UHGV virus genome: UHGV-0129253
Origin: a virus
Direction: 5' to 3' (one strand)
DNA length: 64,000 nt
The position numbers and the translations under genes are program-made. The number at the start of each line of letters is the position of its first letter. Position 1 is the first letter of the stretch. Below the pieces are notes generated by a model. That model did not search any database, was not told where the DNA came from, and saw nothing but the letters and a program-made list of their open reading frames with translations. Positions 12-54,853 of the stretch are shown piece after piece.

Positions 12-650
12 TTGAAAGGTTATGCAGAGGATGCGGTAGGCCAGATCATTATTGATAAAGGCATCGTTAAGTTTGAGGGGGATTTTGATGAATCCGCGAA
101 AACATTCATAGACTTCGTTGCCAAACGTTGGAGCGAGCAATGGAAAGACCTGGAAAAGCGCGCTAGTGAGTTTGATCGGTTCATGGATGCAATGGATACA
201 GCAAAAGAGGCTCTTGCTGCCGGGACTCCGTTAGATCTGGAGTCACTTTTCAACGGCGAAGTGGCCTCTGCGATGTTCGCCACCATGTTCGCGGGTGAGT
301 TCGTCCGCAGCGGTGCCAAAAACTACCTTGAGCTGGATTACAACGTCCCTGCAATTGGCGATTTCGTCGTTACCATCCAACGCAAAGAAGGTAAGACGCC
401 AGGTGAACGCGTCGCAGAGCTTGAGGCCGTTGTGGATCAGCGTAACGGAGAGTGTGACCGTTTGATCAACGAGCTTCATGCACTTCGGGAAGAAAGAATA
501 TGCGCGGGTAGCAATACACGTAATGCAGCGGATATCTACTTCCAGTTAGTTGAGGAATGCCAGATTCCACCAGGCGGCTCTCTTGTCGATTACGTCAGAC
601 ATTTAATGGCGGAAGTTAACTCCAGCCATAAAGATGGTGAGGTGCGCTGA
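12..650 (+). CDS. Hypothetical protein, possibly 5'-partial (TTG at window edge, no upstream in-frame stop)
   Basis: 212-aa ORF; stop overlaps next start (ATGA). Confidence 0.45.
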   Translation: MKGYAEDAVGQIIIDKGIVKFEGDFDESAKTFIDFVAKRWSEQWKDLEKRASEFDRFMDAMDTAKEALAAGTPLDLESLFNGEVASAMFATMFAGEFVRSGAKNYLELDYNVPAIGDFVVTIQRKEGKTPGERVAELEAVVDQRNGECDRLINELHALREERICAGSNTRNAADIYFQLVEECQIPPGGSLVDYVRHLMAEVNSSHKDGEVR

Positions 651-1030
651 TGTTTGGCATTGACGCACAGCGTATAGCCGCTTTTGCAAAAAGCCCTCTT
701 GATAATCCCTTGTCTCGTAGTGAGCAAATGGAGCTGGCAAGGCTTTTTCTTCACATTCAAAAACAGGCAGACATTTTCAATAACATGCCTAATCAACCTA
801 TTCTGGATGGTCACATCCAGATGGTCATTAACAGTCATGAGAAAGGCTGGGCTGCAATCGTCCCCTGCACAATTACATACAAGTTGGCGAAAGAGGTTCA
901 AGAGTTTCGAAAAGCCAGTGTCGAATCGGAGTCTACCAAAGCCGCAATAAACACTCTTATTCGCATGGGGTTCACATGGACCGGTGGAGCCTACTGGCAA
1001 GCACCTCAACCCATTTTATCCGGCAATTAG
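650..1030 (+). CDS. Hypothetical protein
   Basis: 126-aa ORF translationally coupled to upstream ORF; hairpin downstream. Confidence 0.5.
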   Translation: MFGIDAQRIAAFAKSPLDNPLSRSEQMELARLFLHIQKQADIFNNMPNQPILDGHIQMVINSHEKGWAAIVPCTITYKLAKEVQEFRKASVESESTKAAINTLIRMGFTWTGGAYWQAPQPILSGN

Positions 1031-4200: not shown

Positions 4201-4590
4201 ATGGGCTTCCCTTCTCCTGCGGCGGATTATGCTGAGAGCCGTATTTCTCTTGATCAGCAGATAATTAGACATCCTTCAGCGACCTACTTCATGAGGGCAG
4301 CTGATAGTCATCATCGTGAGGGAATATTACAGGGTGCATTGCTGGTGGTCGATTCCTCACTTACCCCGGTTGATGGTTCTCTGCTTGTATGCGCTCTGGA
4401 TGGGGAATATCGCGTAAAAAGATACCGGAAGTACCCACGTCAGCATCTGGAGGATTTAAGAACCGGTAAGAAGGAAGCATTGCCAAAGGATGACGATGGA
4501 TGCACGGGCAGCAATGCCGTGTTTGGTGTGATCACTCACATTATCAACGACGCAAGAAGTGGCGAGTTTGATGATTGTCCTGTGATGTAG
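4201..4590 (+). CDS. UmuD'-like SOS mutagenesis protein (S24 LexA-like peptidase fold), HumD-like pre-processed form
   Basis: MGFPSPAADY...HPSATYF... begins at the UmuD Cys24-Gly25 cleavage position; LexA box upstream; no umuC partner in window. Confidence 0.75.
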   Translation: MGFPSPAADYAESRISLDQQIIRHPSATYFMRAADSHHREGILQGALLVVDSSLTPVDGSLLVCALDGEYRVKRYRKYPRQHLEDLRTGKKEALPKDDDGCTGSNAVFGVITHIINDARSGEFDDCPVM

Positions 4591-50333: not shown

Positions 50334-50399
50334 TCAAGGTGAATGGTGAGGGGCCACCCTCACCAATTCAGGATATTCACATCAAAAAGGAGATTAGAT

Positions 50400-51182
50400 G
50401 TGCCAATTGTCGGTGTTCCCGGTTGGATTGGGTCTTCGGCTGTCAGTGTGACAGGCCAGAGATGGATGAGTGCGGCTCGAACGGCGGTGCAACTGCCAGC
50501 GGCTGGTTCAATGTCTCAAATGGCCGGGCGATCTAAAGAAGTTCAGTACAGCATCGGTGCGAATCATAACTACAACAAAGACACACTGATCAACTATTTA
50601 AAATCCCAGGGGGCGACGCCAGTCGTTGTTACCATTACAGGGGATCTGGTGTCGTCCAGTAGCGGCGTGCCATGTTTAGATTTCCCGAGTTCACTTACCA
50701 ACTCTTATATCAGCCTTGTAATCAACGCAGGTGTGACTGTCTATGGACGCGGTGGCAATGGTGGTAGTAACGCTGCCGGTGCTGCTGGTGGTAACGCAAT
50801 TAATAATGGCATCGGTACACGCTTGCGTATTACGAATAATGGTGCAATCGCTGGAGGTGGTGGCGGCGGTGGCGGCGGTAACAGGGGTCGACTAGTATTT
50901 GGTGGTGGCGGTGGGTGCCCATTCGGTGCTGGTGGGTCTTCCTCTCATATGAGTTCCGGTGCAACTGCTGGTACTATTTCCACTCCTGGTAAGGGATCTG
51001 TTGGTGAGGGGTCTCTTAGTGCATATACAGGCGGTTCGGGTGGTAATGTCGGTGCTGCTGGAGGAAGATGTAATACTCAAGGTAACGGTACAGAATATAA
51101 CGGCGGAGCAGCTGGTAAAGCTGTTACTGGTAATGCTCCAACTTGGACTAAAGTTGGGGCAATTTACGGCGCTCATGTGTAA
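50400..51182 (+). CDS. Glycine-rich protein, possibly tail fibre-associated
   Basis: GTG 50400 with AAGGAG 7 nt upstream; poly-Gly tracts. Confidence 0.45.
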   Translation: MPIVGVPGWIGSSAVSVTGQRWMSAARTAVQLPAAGSMSQMAGRSKEVQYSIGANHNYNKDTLINYLKSQGATPVVVTITGDLVSSSSGVPCLDFPSSLTNSYISLVINAGVTVYGRGGNGGSNAAGAAGGNAINNGIGTRLRITNNGAIAGGGGGGGGGNRGRLVFGGGGGCPFGAGGSSSHMSSGATAGTISTPGKGSVGEGSLSAYTGGSGGNVGAAGGRCNTQGNGTEYNGGAAGKAVTGNAPTWTKVGAIYGAHV

Positions 51183-51256: not shown

Positions 51257-51580
51257 ATGTCGAACGAGATGGCGGGCGTTACAACAGAGCAAGTTGAGCG
51301 TATTGCCGCGATCGTTGCTCGGGAGGTTGTTGGCAAATTAGGTAAAGAGCTACGTGAAGAAATTGGCCAGGAGGTCAATGATCAGCTGAAAACCTACTTT
51401 GGTGATATGACCCCGGCGCAACATAGTATTCAACACTCCAATCTGGACAAACTCCTTAACCGGTTAGATTCCATCTCAAGTGGGTTCTTTGGCGGCATTG
51501 TTTCTAAAATAACGTCGTTCATTATTACCGCACTGCTTTTGGGGTTAGCCGCGTATGGCGTAAAAAGTGGACTGCAATAA
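51257..51580 (+). CDS. Putative holin or membrane lysis protein (single C-terminal TM)
   Basis: Hydrophobic FIITALLLGLAAYGV; first gene of lysis cassette. Confidence 0.4.
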   Translation: MSNEMAGVTTEQVERIAAIVAREVVGKLGKELREEIGQEVNDQLKTYFGDMTPAQHSIQHSNLDKLLNRLDSISSGFFGGIVSKITSFIITALLLGLAAYGVKSGLQ

Positions 51581-51593
51581 CAGGAGATCAAGG

Positions 51594-52286
51594 ATGAAAA
51601 CTCCGAGAGGCATTCGTAATAACAACCCTGGCAACCTCGACAAAGGTTCGCCGTGGCAGGGGCTAATCGACAACCCTGCCGAACCGCGCTTTTGCACGTT
51701 TAAAGACCCTGTTTGGGGGATTCGTGCGCTGGCGGTGACTCTAATTACCTACCACGACAAACGTCGCGCAAAAGACGGCTCAAGTATCGATACCATTCGT
51801 GAAGTTATTGAACGTTGGGCACCGCCGAATGAAAACAATACTGACGCCTACATTAATGAGGTGTCTAAAGCCGTTGGTGTAACCGCAGACATGATTATCG
51901 ATCTGCATGATTACGACATTCTTCGACCTTTGGTTGAGGCAATCATTCGCCATGAGAATGGGCGAGGTCCGCTAAAAACGCTGAACACCTGGTATGCGGC
52001 AGAAGTTATTGAGGAAGGTCTGCGTCGAGCTGGCGTTGTTAAGCCGGCGAAAACCGTGAAGGCTGTTCCTGTAACTAAAGAAACCGCAGGCGCAACTGTT
52101 ACAGCAGGTATTGGTCTGGCGCAGCTGGCCGATGTTATGCCGCAGGTTTCCGCTGCTATGGATAAAGCACAAGGTCATATCTCTAGCGGGGATACAGTAC
52201 GCATCATCTTCGGTATTGCCACCATTGTTGTGGCAGGATTCATTGCCTGGTCGCAGGTAAGAAAACACCAGAAAGGGATGGTCTAA
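51594..52286 (+). CDS. Putative endolysin / lysis protein (by position), with C-terminal TM segment
   Basis: 230 aa between holin-like and spanin genes; function not recognised from sequence. Confidence 0.35.
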   Translation: MKTPRGIRNNNPGNLDKGSPWQGLIDNPAEPRFCTFKDPVWGIRALAVTLITYHDKRRAKDGSSIDTIREVIERWAPPNENNTDAYINEVSKAVGVTADMIIDLHDYDILRPLVEAIIRHENGRGPLKTLNTWYAAEVIEEGLRRAGVVKPAKTVKAVPVTKETAGATVTAGIGLAQLADVMPQVSAAMDKAQGHISSGDTVRIIFGIATIVVAGFIAWSQVRKHQKGMV

Positions 52287-52287
52287 T

Positions 52288-52539
52288 ATGCTAGGCAGCC
52301 TGATGACAAAGCTAAAAGTTGCTTTGATTACGCTGGCTGCCGTTCTTTTCGTTCTTGTCGGCGCTTACACGATGGGCGGGAATGCGGCGCGACGAGCAAT
52401 GGAAGAGAAGGCAAAACAGGAAGACAGAAAACGACTTCAAAACACAGTGAAAGTGGTGAATGAGACGAACAGTGAAATACGTCAGAAAGATGCTTCTGCC
52501 ATTCATCGTGAGCTGCATGATAAGTGGATGCGTCATTAA
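52288..52539 (+). CDS. i-spanin (Rz-like): N-terminal TM plus charged coiled coil
   Basis: MLGSLMTKLKVALITLAAVLFVLVGAY then EEKAKQEDRKRLQ. Confidence 0.55.
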   Translation: MLGSLMTKLKVALITLAAVLFVLVGAYTMGGNAARRAMEEKAKQEDRKRLQNTVKVVNETNSEIRQKDASAIHRELHDKWMRH

Positions 52540-52675
52540 GCCACAAACCACTAGCGTGTTGTTCTGCGATGGCGCTGAACCTATTTATATCAGCAATGAC
52601 GATGTAATGACCGAAGAAACCGAACGCCAAATCCTTTTTCACAATACGATGGGAGAGAGAGTTTGCGGTTGGTGA
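52490..52675 (+). CDS. o-spanin (Rz1-like) lipoprotein, +1 frame overlapping the i-spanin 3' end
   Basis: Signal MLLPFIVSCMISGC with lipobox ISGC; overlaps 52490-52539. Confidence 0.55.
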   Translation: MLLPFIVSCMISGCVIKPQTTSVLFCDGAEPIYISNDDVMTEETERQILFHNTMGERVCGW

Positions 52676-52707
52676 TGTCGAAGTTCCCCTCAAATGAGGG
52701 GGACACA

Positions 52708-53229
52708 TTATTCTTCGAACAATTTTTCGATAGATTTTGTTGGATAGAACAAAGAACGATCGTTGTTACCAACCAGCTGGATAAAGCCCAAACTTTTATA
52801 AAACGCCCTGGCTTTATCGTTCAACGCCTCAACGAAAAGCCCATGAATGCCTACCGCAAGAGATGCATTGTACACAACACGCATTGCGTGAGTTACAAGC
52901 ATTGAGCCAAGCCCCTGACCTTGAAGAGATTTGTCCAAAGCCAGTCTGCCTAAAGTGATACTTGGGACATTCCGATAAGGCACTTTCTTTTGCTGACTCT
53001 TTGAAGGTAAGGTTTCTTTCTCAAAGCAGCTGCCTGACAAAGTGTAATAACCTAATACCTTTGGTATTTCTTCTTTAGTGCAAAGCACATAAGCGCGAAG
53101 AATTTTTCCTTCATGCTGTCTTTTTAAGTGGTTGGTCAAAAATGCGTTTAGTGACTCTTCGCCGCAATCAAAACCGTTTAGATCATAATCGTTCTCTCCA
53201 GAGAAAATCTCGATCGTCGTATTGCTCAC
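52708..53229 (-). CDS. GNAT-family toxin (TacT/AtaT/KacT-like type II TA toxin)
   Basis: 173 aa GNAT; paired with upstream DUF1778-type antitoxin. Confidence 0.75.
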   Translation of the reverse strand: MSNTTIEIFSGENDYDLNGFDCGEESLNAFLTNHLKRQHEGKILRAYVLCTKEEIPKVLGYYTLSGSCFEKETLPSKSQQKKVPYRNVPSITLGRLALDKSLQGQGLGSMLVTHAMRVVYNASLAVGIHGLFVEALNDKARAFYKSLGFIQLVGNNDRSLFYPTKSIEKLFEE

Positions 53230-53236
53230 GAGTAAA

Positions 53237-53506
53237 TTACTCCATGCTTTTCAGACGATTGGCAGCTCGTTTCAGCTTGTCGTTCGGTGCCGGAGGATTG
53301 CTTATAGCATCCATAACCAGATTCCAGGACTCTTCACTTAGAACCAGTCTACGGTGTTGCTCTATCACCTTCACGGCACGTTCGGATGCACTGCTAACCA
53401 TGAACTGGGTAATGCTCTGGTTAGACATTGCGGCAGCTTCCTCGATGATGCTTTTATCGTCATCGGTTAATCTCAAATCGATGCGCTGCTTTTTCAGTGC
53501 GGACAT
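53237..53506 (-). CDS. DUF1778 / RHH antitoxin (TacA/AtaR-like)
   Basis: 89 aa, 7 nt upstream of the GNAT gene on the same strand. Confidence 0.75.
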   Translation of the reverse strand: MSALKKQRIDLRLTDDDKSIIEEAAAMSNQSITQFMVSSASERAVKVIEQHRRLVLSEESWNLVMDAISNPPAPNDKLKRAANRLKSME

Positions 53507-53825: not shown

Positions 53826-54494
53826 ATGACCAAGATCTTTGTGGTTGGCGGCACAAAGGGCGGGCCTGGCAAATCCACTGTTGCCCAGCAAATTGCCGTT
53901 TGCCTGAAAGTCAAAAAGAAGAAGAAGGTTTATATCACTGATATAGATATTCAGCGCACGACAACAAGCTGGTGTGAAGACCGTAGACAGAACGAAGACC
54001 TTGAGCTGATTCCTTTTGCATACGTTCAGGATGACATCATTAAGCACCTAAAATCGCTTCAGGGTAGAGCTGAGTTTGTAGTGGTAGATGCTGGTGGCTT
54101 TGACTCCGAAATTCAGCGACAAGCGATGCTGATGGCCGACGTTATCATTATCCCGCTTCGTCCCAAGCGTCGTGATTTGAAATCTCTGCGTGACATTGAT
54201 CCTATTATCGACAATGTTCGTAATGTAAACGATAAAGTGAAGGTCCGCGCGGTCATGAACCAGTGCCCGGCTTTGCCATCACAAGTGTCTCGCATTCTGG
54301 CGGCTAAAGAGATTGTTGAGACGTTTGGCATCGAGTCTGCGCCAGTCAATTTATATAACCGCAACGTCTATGATGATGCGGAAGAGTCTGGTCGTTCTAT
54401 CTTTGAAATGACCGGTAGCGAGCGCGACAAAAAGGCGGAAGCCGAGTTTGAAGAATTTGTAGATTATCTGTTGAGTCTGGAGGAAGAAGAATAA
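53826..54494 (+). CDS. ParA/ParF-type partition ATPase
   Basis: Deviant Walker A GGTKGGPGKST; 222 aa. Confidence 0.8.
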   Translation: MTKIFVVGGTKGGPGKSTVAQQIAVCLKVKKKKKVYITDIDIQRTTTSWCEDRRQNEDLELIPFAYVQDDIIKHLKSLQGRAEFVVVDAGGFDSEIQRQAMLMADVIIIPLRPKRRDLKSLRDIDPIIDNVRNVNDKVKVRAVMNQCPALPSQVSRILAAKEIVETFGIESAPVNLYNRNVYDDAEESGRSIFEMTGSERDKKAEAEFEEFVDYLLSLEEEE

Positions 54495-54853
54495 TGTCCA
54501 TGAAAATGGGTGACCTAGCAAAGCGCAAAGAGCCTGATGCACCGGCCAAGAACACAACTCCTTTGCGCCAACCAGTCAGACCACAGGGACGCCCGACTCG
54601 TGGCAAAGAGAAAATTAAAAGCCGCACAATGTCACTGGAGGACGAATACTTCGAACTGCTGGAAATGATGAAGTTCATCCCTCGTTTCGAGAAGTTCACC
54701 CGTTCTGACGTGATTCGCGCAGCCATTTTCCATCTGGCAGAGAAGTCACCGCAGGAAATCGAGGACATCGTGAAATTGAATGAGGCGATCACCGCTGCCG
54801 ATGTCACGATGCGTACCGATGAAATCAAACGAGAGTTGATGAAGAAAGGTTAA
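54494..54853 (+). CDS. Putative partition partner (ParG/ParB-like, basic N-terminus)
   Basis: 119 aa, start overlapping ParA-like stop. Confidence 0.5.
   Translation: MSMKMGDLAKRKEPDAPAKNTTPLRQPVRPQGRPTRGKEKIKSRTMSLEDEYFELLEMMKFIPRFEKFTRSDVIRAAIFHLAEKSPQEIEDIVKLNEAITAADVTMRTDEIKRELMKKG

Follow-up and report, generated by a model that had tools for sequence, protein, structure and literature searches.

The stretch analysed here, hereafter the window, comprises 64,000 nucleotides (nt) of one strand of the virus genome UHGV-0129253 and belongs to an SSU5-like phage-plasmid of Escherichia coli. Between positions 51,257 and 52,675 it carries four closely spaced genes on the + strand, which encode a holin-like or lysis-timing protein of 107 amino acids (aa), a 230-aa endolysin and an overlapping pair of spanins (Table 1). 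The original prediction, made from the sequence alone, had proposed a lysis cassette at this place, and each of its open reading frames (ORFs) was found where it had put them. The cassette reading is supported by matches to PHROG profiles, by homology to characterised proteins and by the annotation of the same genes in two deposited phages, namely Escherichia phage Cyrano (Holin, Endolysin, Rz spanin and Rz1 spanin) and Salmonella phage SSU5 (putative holin, endolysin and Rz-like spanins in RefSeq). At the DNA level, the cassette is 96.5% identical to Cyrano, 92-94% identical to other E. coli phage-plasmids and 82% identical to SSU5. The layout of the neighbouring genes agrees with that of SSU5, and about 10 kb around the cassette match E. 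coli plasmids that are non-mobilizable and about 106-113 kb long. We found the cassette in 250 of 5,426 complete E. coli genomes (about 4.6%), plasmid-borne in every case, and resistance genes are present on some of the cassette-bearing plasmids or genomes. The PHROG matches, the pattern of codon changes against SSU5 and the recurrence in 250 genomes all argue that these ORFs did not arise by chance. Throughout, codon differences were counted against SSU5, and transmembrane domains (TMDs) were called by a simple Kyte-Doolittle (KD) hydropathy window.

Table 1. Features of the lysis cassette in the window, followed by adjoining genes
Feature	Coordinates	Strand	Match or remark
Holin-like or lysis-timing gene, 107 aa	51257..51580	+	phrog_5093 (function unassigned), E 2.2e-68
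Endolysin, 230 aa, Enc34/M4Lys type	51594..52286	+	phrog_873 'endolysin', E 5e-87
Endolysin catalytic domain, aa 1-150	51594..52043	+	Predicted all-helical, lysozyme alpha-lobe-like PHA02564 fold
Endolysin conserved C-terminal membrane domain, aa 159-230	52068..52283	+	M4Lys C-terminal region: 53% identity, E 2.5e-25
i-spanin (Rz-like), 83 aa	52288..52539	+	phrog_1026 'Rz-like spanin', E 1.3e-25
o-spanin (Rz1-like), +1 frame relative to the i-spanin gene	52460..52675	+	phrog_1275 'Rz-like spanin', E 2.9e-25
Putative stem-loop, 9-bp, GC-rich	52683..52704	.	Past the o-spanin stop codon, before the convergent gene for the GNAT toxin
Tail fibre, 1678 aa	45297..50333	+	Long Ala/Ser/Thr-rich low-complexity stretch; Gp34/gp37 trimerisation domains
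gp38 adhesin, T-even type	50343..51182	+	Pfam GP38, E 2.7e-69, plus Gp38_N; directly 5′ of the lysis cassette
GNAT acetyltransferase toxin	52708..53229	-	Convergent with the cassette; 'KacT toxin' in Cyrano
TacA1-type antitoxin	53237..53506	-	Pfam TacA1, E 3.5e-26
ParA/MipZ-type partition ATPase	53826..54494	+	
119-aa protein	54494..54853	+	No Pfam match; Cyrano equivalent 'RelE/ParE putative toxin'

The gene for the 230-aa protein is preceded by the sequence AGGAG. A phmmer search matched residues 3-152 to PDB entry 7Q47, the endolysin catalytic domain from Hafnia phage Enc34, at an E-value of 6.6e-54. An AlphaFold2 (AF2) model built from 28 homologs reached a predicted local distance difference test (pLDDT) score of 84-96 over residues 1-150, and Foldseek aligned it with 7Q47 at a TM-score of 0.90, a root-mean-square deviation of 1.5 Å and 59% identity. 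The predicted catalytic residue Glu121, together with Trp75 and Tyr86, is invariant in the 28 homologs, and these residues align with E131, W79 and Y95 of Enc34 (numbering of the Enc34 paper). Over its full length, the protein is 57% identical to M4Lys (E 1e-90) of the Salmonella chi-like phage BSPM4 and 55% identical to Enc34 ORF39, and its gene differs from that of SSU5 by 95 synonymous-only and 12 non-synonymous codon differences. On this homology, the 230-aa protein is an endolysin with a predicted Enc34/PHA02564-type glycosidase domain. The original prediction had been able to assign no motif to this protein, which is consistent with our Pfam search, in which no family exceeded the threshold; its reader saw no motif because Pfam holds no family for it. 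It had also considered that the protein might lack any muralytic fold and that another endolysin might be found elsewhere on the element. The profile and structure searches that it had suggested returned a muralytic fold of the Enc34/PHA02564 type, and the whole genome of SSU5 has no other endolysin, lysozyme, amidase or transglycosylase annotated; in the window itself, the tape measure, the J-like protein and the fibre have no muralytic Pfam domain.

Among the matches listed for full-length homologs (120 of 1,870), none has a precomputed Pfam domain over the catalytic part, and this experimentally validated endolysin domain therefore appears to have no Pfam family. The matches listed include proteins from Cronobacter, Klebsiella, Serratia, Photorhabdus, Xenorhabdus, Providencia, Pectobacterium, Pasteurella and pHCM2.

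The N-terminus of the endolysin is hydrophilic (MKTPRGIRNNNPGN), and no 19-residue window before residue 195 attains a KD value of 1.2. A signal-anchor-release (SAR) endolysin, which would carry a weakly hydrophobic SAR domain at its N-terminus, was rejected, since no such domain is found. The hydrophobic segment that had been noticed at the C-terminus is present, and it forms part of a conserved membrane domain that contains a PVTKET linker motif. The proximal helix of this domain (residues 165-183, nt 52086-52142) is rich in Gly, Ala and Thr, is weakly hydrophobic (KD 1.06) and holds conserved Q, D/E and P residues; it is separated by a short loop with SSG from a strong distal TMD (residues 204-222, nt 52203-52259, KD 2.07), which is followed by the basic tail RKHQKGMV. 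Twelve positions of the domain are invariant in the 28 homologs (P159, T161, E163, A167, G174, Q177, A179, P183, A188, S198, A218 and Q221), and two of them, A218 and Q221, fall within the distal TMD region. The membrane domain is thus as conserved as the catalytic core, which argues for a specific function. The AF2 model places helices at residues 162-170, 178-194 and 200-226, with low confidence in this part (pLDDT below 50 for residues 159-200).

The i-spanin start codon lies 1 nt after the endolysin stop codon, and the endolysin and i-spanin genes are predicted to be translationally coupled. As had been read from the sequence, the 83-aa i-spanin has an N-terminal TMD (residues about 9-29, KD up to 2.38), and it continues with a charged periplasmic helical part of 54 residues without Cys. 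Three candidate starts are available for the o-spanin, ATG 52460 (71 aa), GTG 52472 and ATG 52490, the last of which gives the 61-aa lipoprotein proposed earlier. Depending on the start, the two spanin genes overlap by 50-80 nt, and 136 nt of the o-spanin gene lie past the i-spanin stop; with an o-spanin gene that begins within the i-spanin gene and runs on past its end, the pair has an 'overlapped' architecture. The lipobox I-S-G-C at 52520..52531, on which the lipoprotein assignment had been based, is followed by Val at position +2, with no Asp, as expected of a lipoprotein sorted to the outer membrane, and the mature lipoprotein comprises 48 aa with two further conserved Cys residues.

Both spanins have relatives in characterised phages. 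The i-spanin aligns with Enc34 ORF40 (E 6e-9) and the o-spanin with Enc34 ORF41 (43% identity, E 7e-21) and with the o-spanin of SSU5, and both align with two ORFs of BSPM4 that are incorrectly annotated in the BSPM4 record. Against SSU5, the i-spanin gene shows 17 synonymous and 21 non-synonymous differences and the o-spanin gene 16 and 16, so that the spanins evolve faster than the first two genes of the cassette. Lambda Rz has 153 aa, and the window pair, with its 83-aa i-spanin, is much shorter than lambda Rz/Rz1. The o-spanin of SSU5 was placed in the 'Chi' family by Kongari et al. 2018 (PMC6139136); by sequence similarity, the spanin pair of the window belongs to this published family, with which it shares an i-spanin with N-terminal TMD and an o-spanin lipoprotein. 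The architecture is also that of P2 LysB/LysC, in which the second gene starts in the +1 frame within the first and extends past it (PMC6139136).

The annotation of o-spanins is inconsistent across the public records of Cyrano, SSU5 and BSPM4. In Cyrano, the coding sequence (CDS) named Rz1 (L001, 7345..7464) is a 39-aa fragment without the lipobox, and in the RefSeq record of SSU5 the o-spanin is given as two nested CDSs in the same frame (L003, 4263..4493 and 4347..4493). In BSPM4 (L002, 3190..3600), the i-spanin ORF is unannotated, with a 'hypothetical protein' called on the opposite strand instead, and the o-spanin ORF is covered only by a CDS named 'hypothetical protein'; both spanin ORFs are clearly present.

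The first gene of the cassette is its least-charted part. A GGAGG Shine-Dalgarno sequence lies 5 nt 5′ of ATG 51257, and longer starts were rejected both here (ATG 51245) and for the endolysin (GTG 51567), because the starts with a good Shine-Dalgarno sequence match the N-termini of homologs. The 107-aa protein consists of a charged, helical N-terminal part of about 80 residues and a single C-terminal TMD (residues about 81-102, nt about 51497-51562, KD 2.0), which is its sole hydrophobic stretch and is followed by only five residues (KSGLQ). With 38 synonymous-only and 5 non-synonymous codon differences from SSU5, the gene is under strong purifying selection. No Pfam family matched the protein, and its only PHROG family is phrog_5093. 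An AF2 model from a 12-sequence alignment was all-helical with a pLDDT of 47, which was uninformative, and it was not used for a fold search. The protein is a small membrane protein with a TMD, encoded 13 nt 5′ of the endolysin gene, as is expected of a holin, and it has its charged domain at the N-terminus and lacks the highly charged, hydrophilic C-terminal tail by which holins are also recognised. The label 'holin-like' that it had received therefore holds in a broad sense, on position, the single TMD and membership of a lysis-cassette family, and does not extend to similarity with any named holin family.

Homology of the 107-aa protein to the chi-type holins was considered and rejected: BLASTP against the BSPM4 and Enc34 holins returned no similarity, the MAFFT alignment was spurious, and the TMDs lie at opposite ends. 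The chi-type 'holin' (BSPM4 ORF_37; L002, 2150..2488) belongs to a different family, phrog_7686 (E 6e-58), which PHROGs labels 'Rz-like spanin'. In the literature, ORF_37 is called a class IV holin, and its N-terminal TMD and coiled-coil-like domain are also i-spanin-like.

Several endolysins of the same kind have been characterised. M4Lys (putative lysis protein A, BSPM4_0038) combines the same PHA02564 catalytic domain and C-terminal membrane domain and likewise lies 5′ of homologous overlapped spanins. M4Lys alone lyses E. coli within 20-60 min, and this lysis is not blocked by azide and is abolished by removal of the TMD or of just the last 13 aa; the TMD by itself is bacteriostatic, and the catalytic domain degrades peptidoglycan with a measured N-acetylglucosaminidase specificity (PMC7143992). 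The BSPM4 'lysis protein B', encoded 5′ of M4Lys, had little effect alone and slightly slowed lysis by M4Lys (PMC7143992). BSPM4 differs from the element described here in being a virulent flagellotropic siphovirus and not a phage-plasmid, in its unrelated upstream single-TMD partner, which has an N-terminal TMD in BSPM4 and a C-terminal one in the window, and in a 6-residue insertion after the catalytic Glu of M4Lys that the window endolysin does not have. The endolysins of Enc34 (ORF39) and Siskin share the fold, the catalytic Glu/Trp/Tyr and possibly the 'two-helix' C-terminal TMD that is predicted for them. The gene order of Enc34 (holin, endolysin, overlapped Rz/Rz1) is identical, with nearly equal gene sizes, whereas its holin belongs to another family than the 107-aa protein. 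Full-length Enc34 ORF39 is toxic, and its truncated catalytic domain is soluble and muralytic (PMC8943055). The Siskin announcement was the first report of an endolysin with two predicted C-terminal TMDs in an N-in/C-in arrangement, and the holin of that phage, with an N-terminal TMD oriented N-out/C-in, was proposed as 'class IV' (PMC6498227). A search of the available literature for later mechanistic work on this class returned nothing beyond these 2019-2022 papers. According to the Enc34 paper, the architecture is confined to Chivirus and its near relatives (PMC8943055), whereas it is found here in SSU5-type phage-plasmids of many Enterobacterales.

The C-terminal anchor had been called atypical for endolysins. 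It is indeed unusual among endolysins generally, but it defines an already described class (Siskin 2019, M4Lys 2020, Enc34 2022), and the C-terminally anchored endolysin is thus an atypical but published category.

Two further systems offer comparisons. LysAP of Acidovorax phage AP1 likewise has a C-terminal TMD, which is required for membrane localisation and lysis, and its full-length form is toxic whereas the TMD-deleted form is harmless; its catalytic domain is an unrelated GH24 lysozyme domain and its cassette contains no spanins, so that this non-homologous protein provides a functional analogy only (PMC8879335). SAR endolysins that act with pinholins (P1 Lyz, phage 21 R21) are also membrane-tethered, with release or activation tied to the state of the membrane, and for lysis they too can do without a large-hole holin. 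Their SAR domain lies at the N-terminus and is exported by Sec, whereas the hydrophobic segments of the window endolysin are C-terminal and lysis by its homolog is azide-insensitive.

We therefore read the region as a late lysis cassette, carried by an SSU5-type phage-plasmid, with a membrane-anchored endolysin and a proposed order of lysis, a reading to which we assign a probability of about 85%. The identity, fold and conservation of the parts and their homology to characterised proteins are matters of direct observation. In the proposed order, the endolysin would first accumulate at the inner membrane, held by its conserved C-terminal membrane domain. This domain would be more than a passive anchor: on homology with M4Lys and Enc34 ORF39, it would give the catalytic domain access to peptidoglycan without Sec or a separate holin and would in effect be a cis-acting holin-like module. 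By analogy with these proteins, the domain is probably needed for Sec- and holin-independent lysis and, together with the catalytic domain, may be sufficient for it. We infer that an N-in/C-in hairpin is its likeliest topology, in which a weak proximal helix and a strong distal TMD would be followed by a basic tail in the cytoplasm. The 107-aa tail-anchored phrog_5093 protein may then set or modulate timing, being either a holin or a regulator of one. Once the wall has been degraded, the i-/o-spanin complex disrupts the outer membrane, and the overlapped Chi-family pair would do so here.

Several points weigh against parts of this proposal. For the two-TMD topology, the proximal helix has a KD of only 1.06 and the AF2 model is unconfident over residues 159-200, and the literature disagrees: the Siskin authors predicted two TMDs, N-in/C-in (PMC6498227), and the M4Lys authors a single TMD with a periplasmic catalytic domain (PMC7143992). 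When the C-terminal 81 residues of the endolysin were searched against PHROGs and Pfam, no named holin family matched; the search returned phrog_873, its own family, the remaining hits (DUF6187, SLATT_1) being sub-threshold noise. The functional data were all obtained with homologs in chi-like phages (55-57% identity) with a different upstream 'holin', and the holin-independent lysis by M4Lys, which was obtained under strong induction, as the Enc34 authors note (PMC8943055), is a possible over-expression artefact.

To see the 107-aa protein in a wider context, we surveyed its family. In deposited phages, a phrog_5093-type gene is present in only 12 of 50,697 records, all SSU5-like. Searched with a profile, 1.8 billion representative proteins yielded 55 relatives of about 100-140 aa, all unnamed and all matching phrog_5093. 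The family motif is FGDMxxxQHxxQHxR...D...S.NFWG, with Gly49, His56 and His60 (HxxxH) invariant, and every member ends in a single TMD plus a very short tail. Gene neighbourhoods were surveyed at 11 loci of distant relatives, a number limited by the fact that a 7-sequence subset recovered only 2 loci in IMG/VR. At 8 of these loci, the relative lies one or two genes 5′ of an identifiable endolysin. It is followed by a Peptidase_M15_3 endolysin at five loci, by an Amidase_2 endolysin at one, by an Enc34-type endolysin with C-terminal TMD and then a phrog_1026 spanin at one (L017), and by a PHROG-annotated holin and then a phrog_669 endolysin at one (L012); at two loci (L007 and L018) it precedes a small multi-TMD protein with no recognisable endolysin nearby, and at one (L013) it lies at the contig end. 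The relatives thus head cassettes with at least four endolysin types, so that the family appears to be a lysis-cassette component independent of endolysin type, which lends the 'holin-like' label broad support. Nine of the 11 distant cassettes contain an additional small protein with 1-3 TMDs, of which one matches a holin PHROG (E 4e-10) and a second has weak hits to two holin PHROGs (E 0.007 and 0.08). Where the endolysin is soluble (Peptidase_M15_3, Amidase_2 or phrog_669), every cassette includes such a second small membrane protein, and in the cassettes with a TMD-bearing endolysin (window, SSU5 and L017) there is none. Because the extra protein is so frequent, the phrog_5093 protein may be a regulator and need not be the hole-former.

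In five of these neighbourhoods (L009, L010, L014, L015 and L012), the endolysin and the small membrane protein are followed by proteins of about 200 aa that have a TMD at the N-terminus. They have in common the C-terminal motif (L/V)SRG(E/Q)LW(L/M)L(D/N)...ALVDYV...QRERLG, and their matches to spanin PHROGs are weak (E 3e-4 to 9e-3); the gene in L009 contains an embedded lipobox ORF in the +1 frame.

With these contexts in hand, the role of the 107-aa protein can be weighed. In a canonical pathway, it would be a true holin or pinholin, and the endolysin TMD would tether an inactive enzyme until holin-induced depolarisation released it, as has been proposed for the 'C-terminal SAR' endolysin of Acidovorax phage AP1 in the LysAP/HolAP model (PMC8879335). 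The gene occupies the classic holin position, is called a holin in Cyrano and SSU5, is under the strong purifying selection described above and has relatives at the head of cassettes with four endolysin types, and the Enc34 authors regard a pinholin-type model as possible (PMC8943055). However, these authors also point out that no mechanism is known by which a C-terminal signal or anchor would export an N-terminal domain, here of about 200 aa, and they leave the mechanism unexplained (PMC8943055), so that a purely tethered enzyme would stay on the cytoplasmic side. M4Lys, moreover, lyses without its upstream partner (PMC7143992), and the 107-aa protein has neither the charged C-terminal tail typical of holins nor a match to a holin family, within a family that need not form the hole in view of the additional small membrane protein at nine of the 11 loci. 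We consider this pathway possible and lean against it.

Alternatively, the 107-aa protein could be an antiholin or lysis-timing regulator, with the hole-forming activity residing, in SSU5-like elements, in the C-terminal domain of the endolysin. The distribution of the extra small membrane protein, present with soluble endolysins and absent with the TMD-bearing ones, points in this direction, as do the slight delay of M4Lys lysis by the unrelated upstream single-TMD protein of BSPM4, which had little effect alone (PMC7143992), and the invariant HxxxH beside the TMD, which may be a sensing motif. This proposal nevertheless draws on sequence context for the whole phrog_5093 family, from 11 contexts with TMDs called by a simple hydropathy window, and most of the extra small membrane proteins lack an annotation and may have other roles; on balance we regard it as rather unlikely. 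The same distribution could be taken further, to suggest that phrog_5093 proteins, with their roughly 80 cytoplasmic residues, invariant HxxxH, one C-terminal TMD and next to no periplasmic tail, form an undescribed lysis-timing class; in SSU5-type phage-plasmids they would not form the hole but would gate a self-exporting 'holin-endolysin fusion' whose conserved C-terminal domain supplies the membrane lesion, a generalisation that we hold to be doubtful. For the membrane domain of the endolysin itself, we continue to favour an active, probably holin-like role over a passive tether, by analogy with M4Lys.

A role of the 230-aa protein as a virion-associated (entry) lysin, and not as the endolysin, is very improbable and was rejected on gene context: although the same domain occurs in PHROGs for a tail injection transglycosylase, a tape measure and a head protein and in internal virion protein D/ejectosome proteins of T7-like phages, with E 3e-21 to the core protein Gp29 of phage E1004 (PDB 9vvp) and an identity of about 40% with the internal virion proteins of T7-like phages, and although the NCBI domain name is 'virion protein', the window protein stands alone at 230 aa, has a membrane anchor, adjoins the holin-like gene and the spanins, and is apparently coupled to the i-spanin, no other endolysin is annotated in SSU5, and its homolog M4Lys lyses from within (PMC7143992). 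In E1004 Gp29 and the Kayfunavirus internal virion protein D, the domain forms the N-terminal module of entry proteins of more than 1,000 aa, in contrast to the small stand-alone membrane protein in the lysis cassette of the window.

The cassette as such is already known: its genes are annotated in deposited phages, a crystal structure and lysis assays are available for its endolysin class, and its spanin family has been catalogued with SSU5. It therefore carries little weight as a discovery, and the residual interest lies in the export mechanism of the endolysin and in the phrog_5093 family, an uncharacterised family whose gene context is surveyed here for the first time. In SSU5-type phage-plasmids, this kind of endolysin has another partner encoded upstream, and this natural exchange could help to separate the roles of the partner and the TMD in Sec- and holin-free access to the periplasm. 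There is also an annotation gap, in that the cassette genes on the plasmids of the E. coli genomes mentioned above are called 'hypothetical protein' under PGAP/RefSeq.

The cassette is flanked on its 5′ side by genes for the tape measure, a J-like tip protein, the 1678-aa fibre and a gp38-type adhesin, and on its 3′ side by a TacT/TacA-type toxin-antitoxin pair, ParA and replication genes. The stem-loop just past the o-spanin gene has no clear T-run, and sites matching its pattern number 4 in the region against 3.5 expected by chance; it is possibly a candidate transcription terminator shared by the converging genes. A promoter and terminator scan of the region gave a site count not above that of shuffled sequence. 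The 1678-aa fibre, which is longer than and unlike that of Cyrano, carries a Peptidase_S74 intramolecular-chaperone domain at its C-terminus, and the separate gp38 adhesin comes next. Cyrano has no gp38 gene at the corresponding position, and in the metagenomic contig L012 a GP38 gene (90..995) also lies directly 5′ of the phrog_5093-like gene. In SSU5, a protein at 86898..87596 (L006, 36898..37596) is annotated as 'lysozyme inhibitor LprI family protein', a curious gene in a phage whose endolysin is lysozyme-like. SSU5 carries different genes at the spot of the toxin-antitoxin pair. Further downstream in the window, the 119-aa protein may be a partition adaptor, to judge from its position after the ParA/MipZ-type ATPase.

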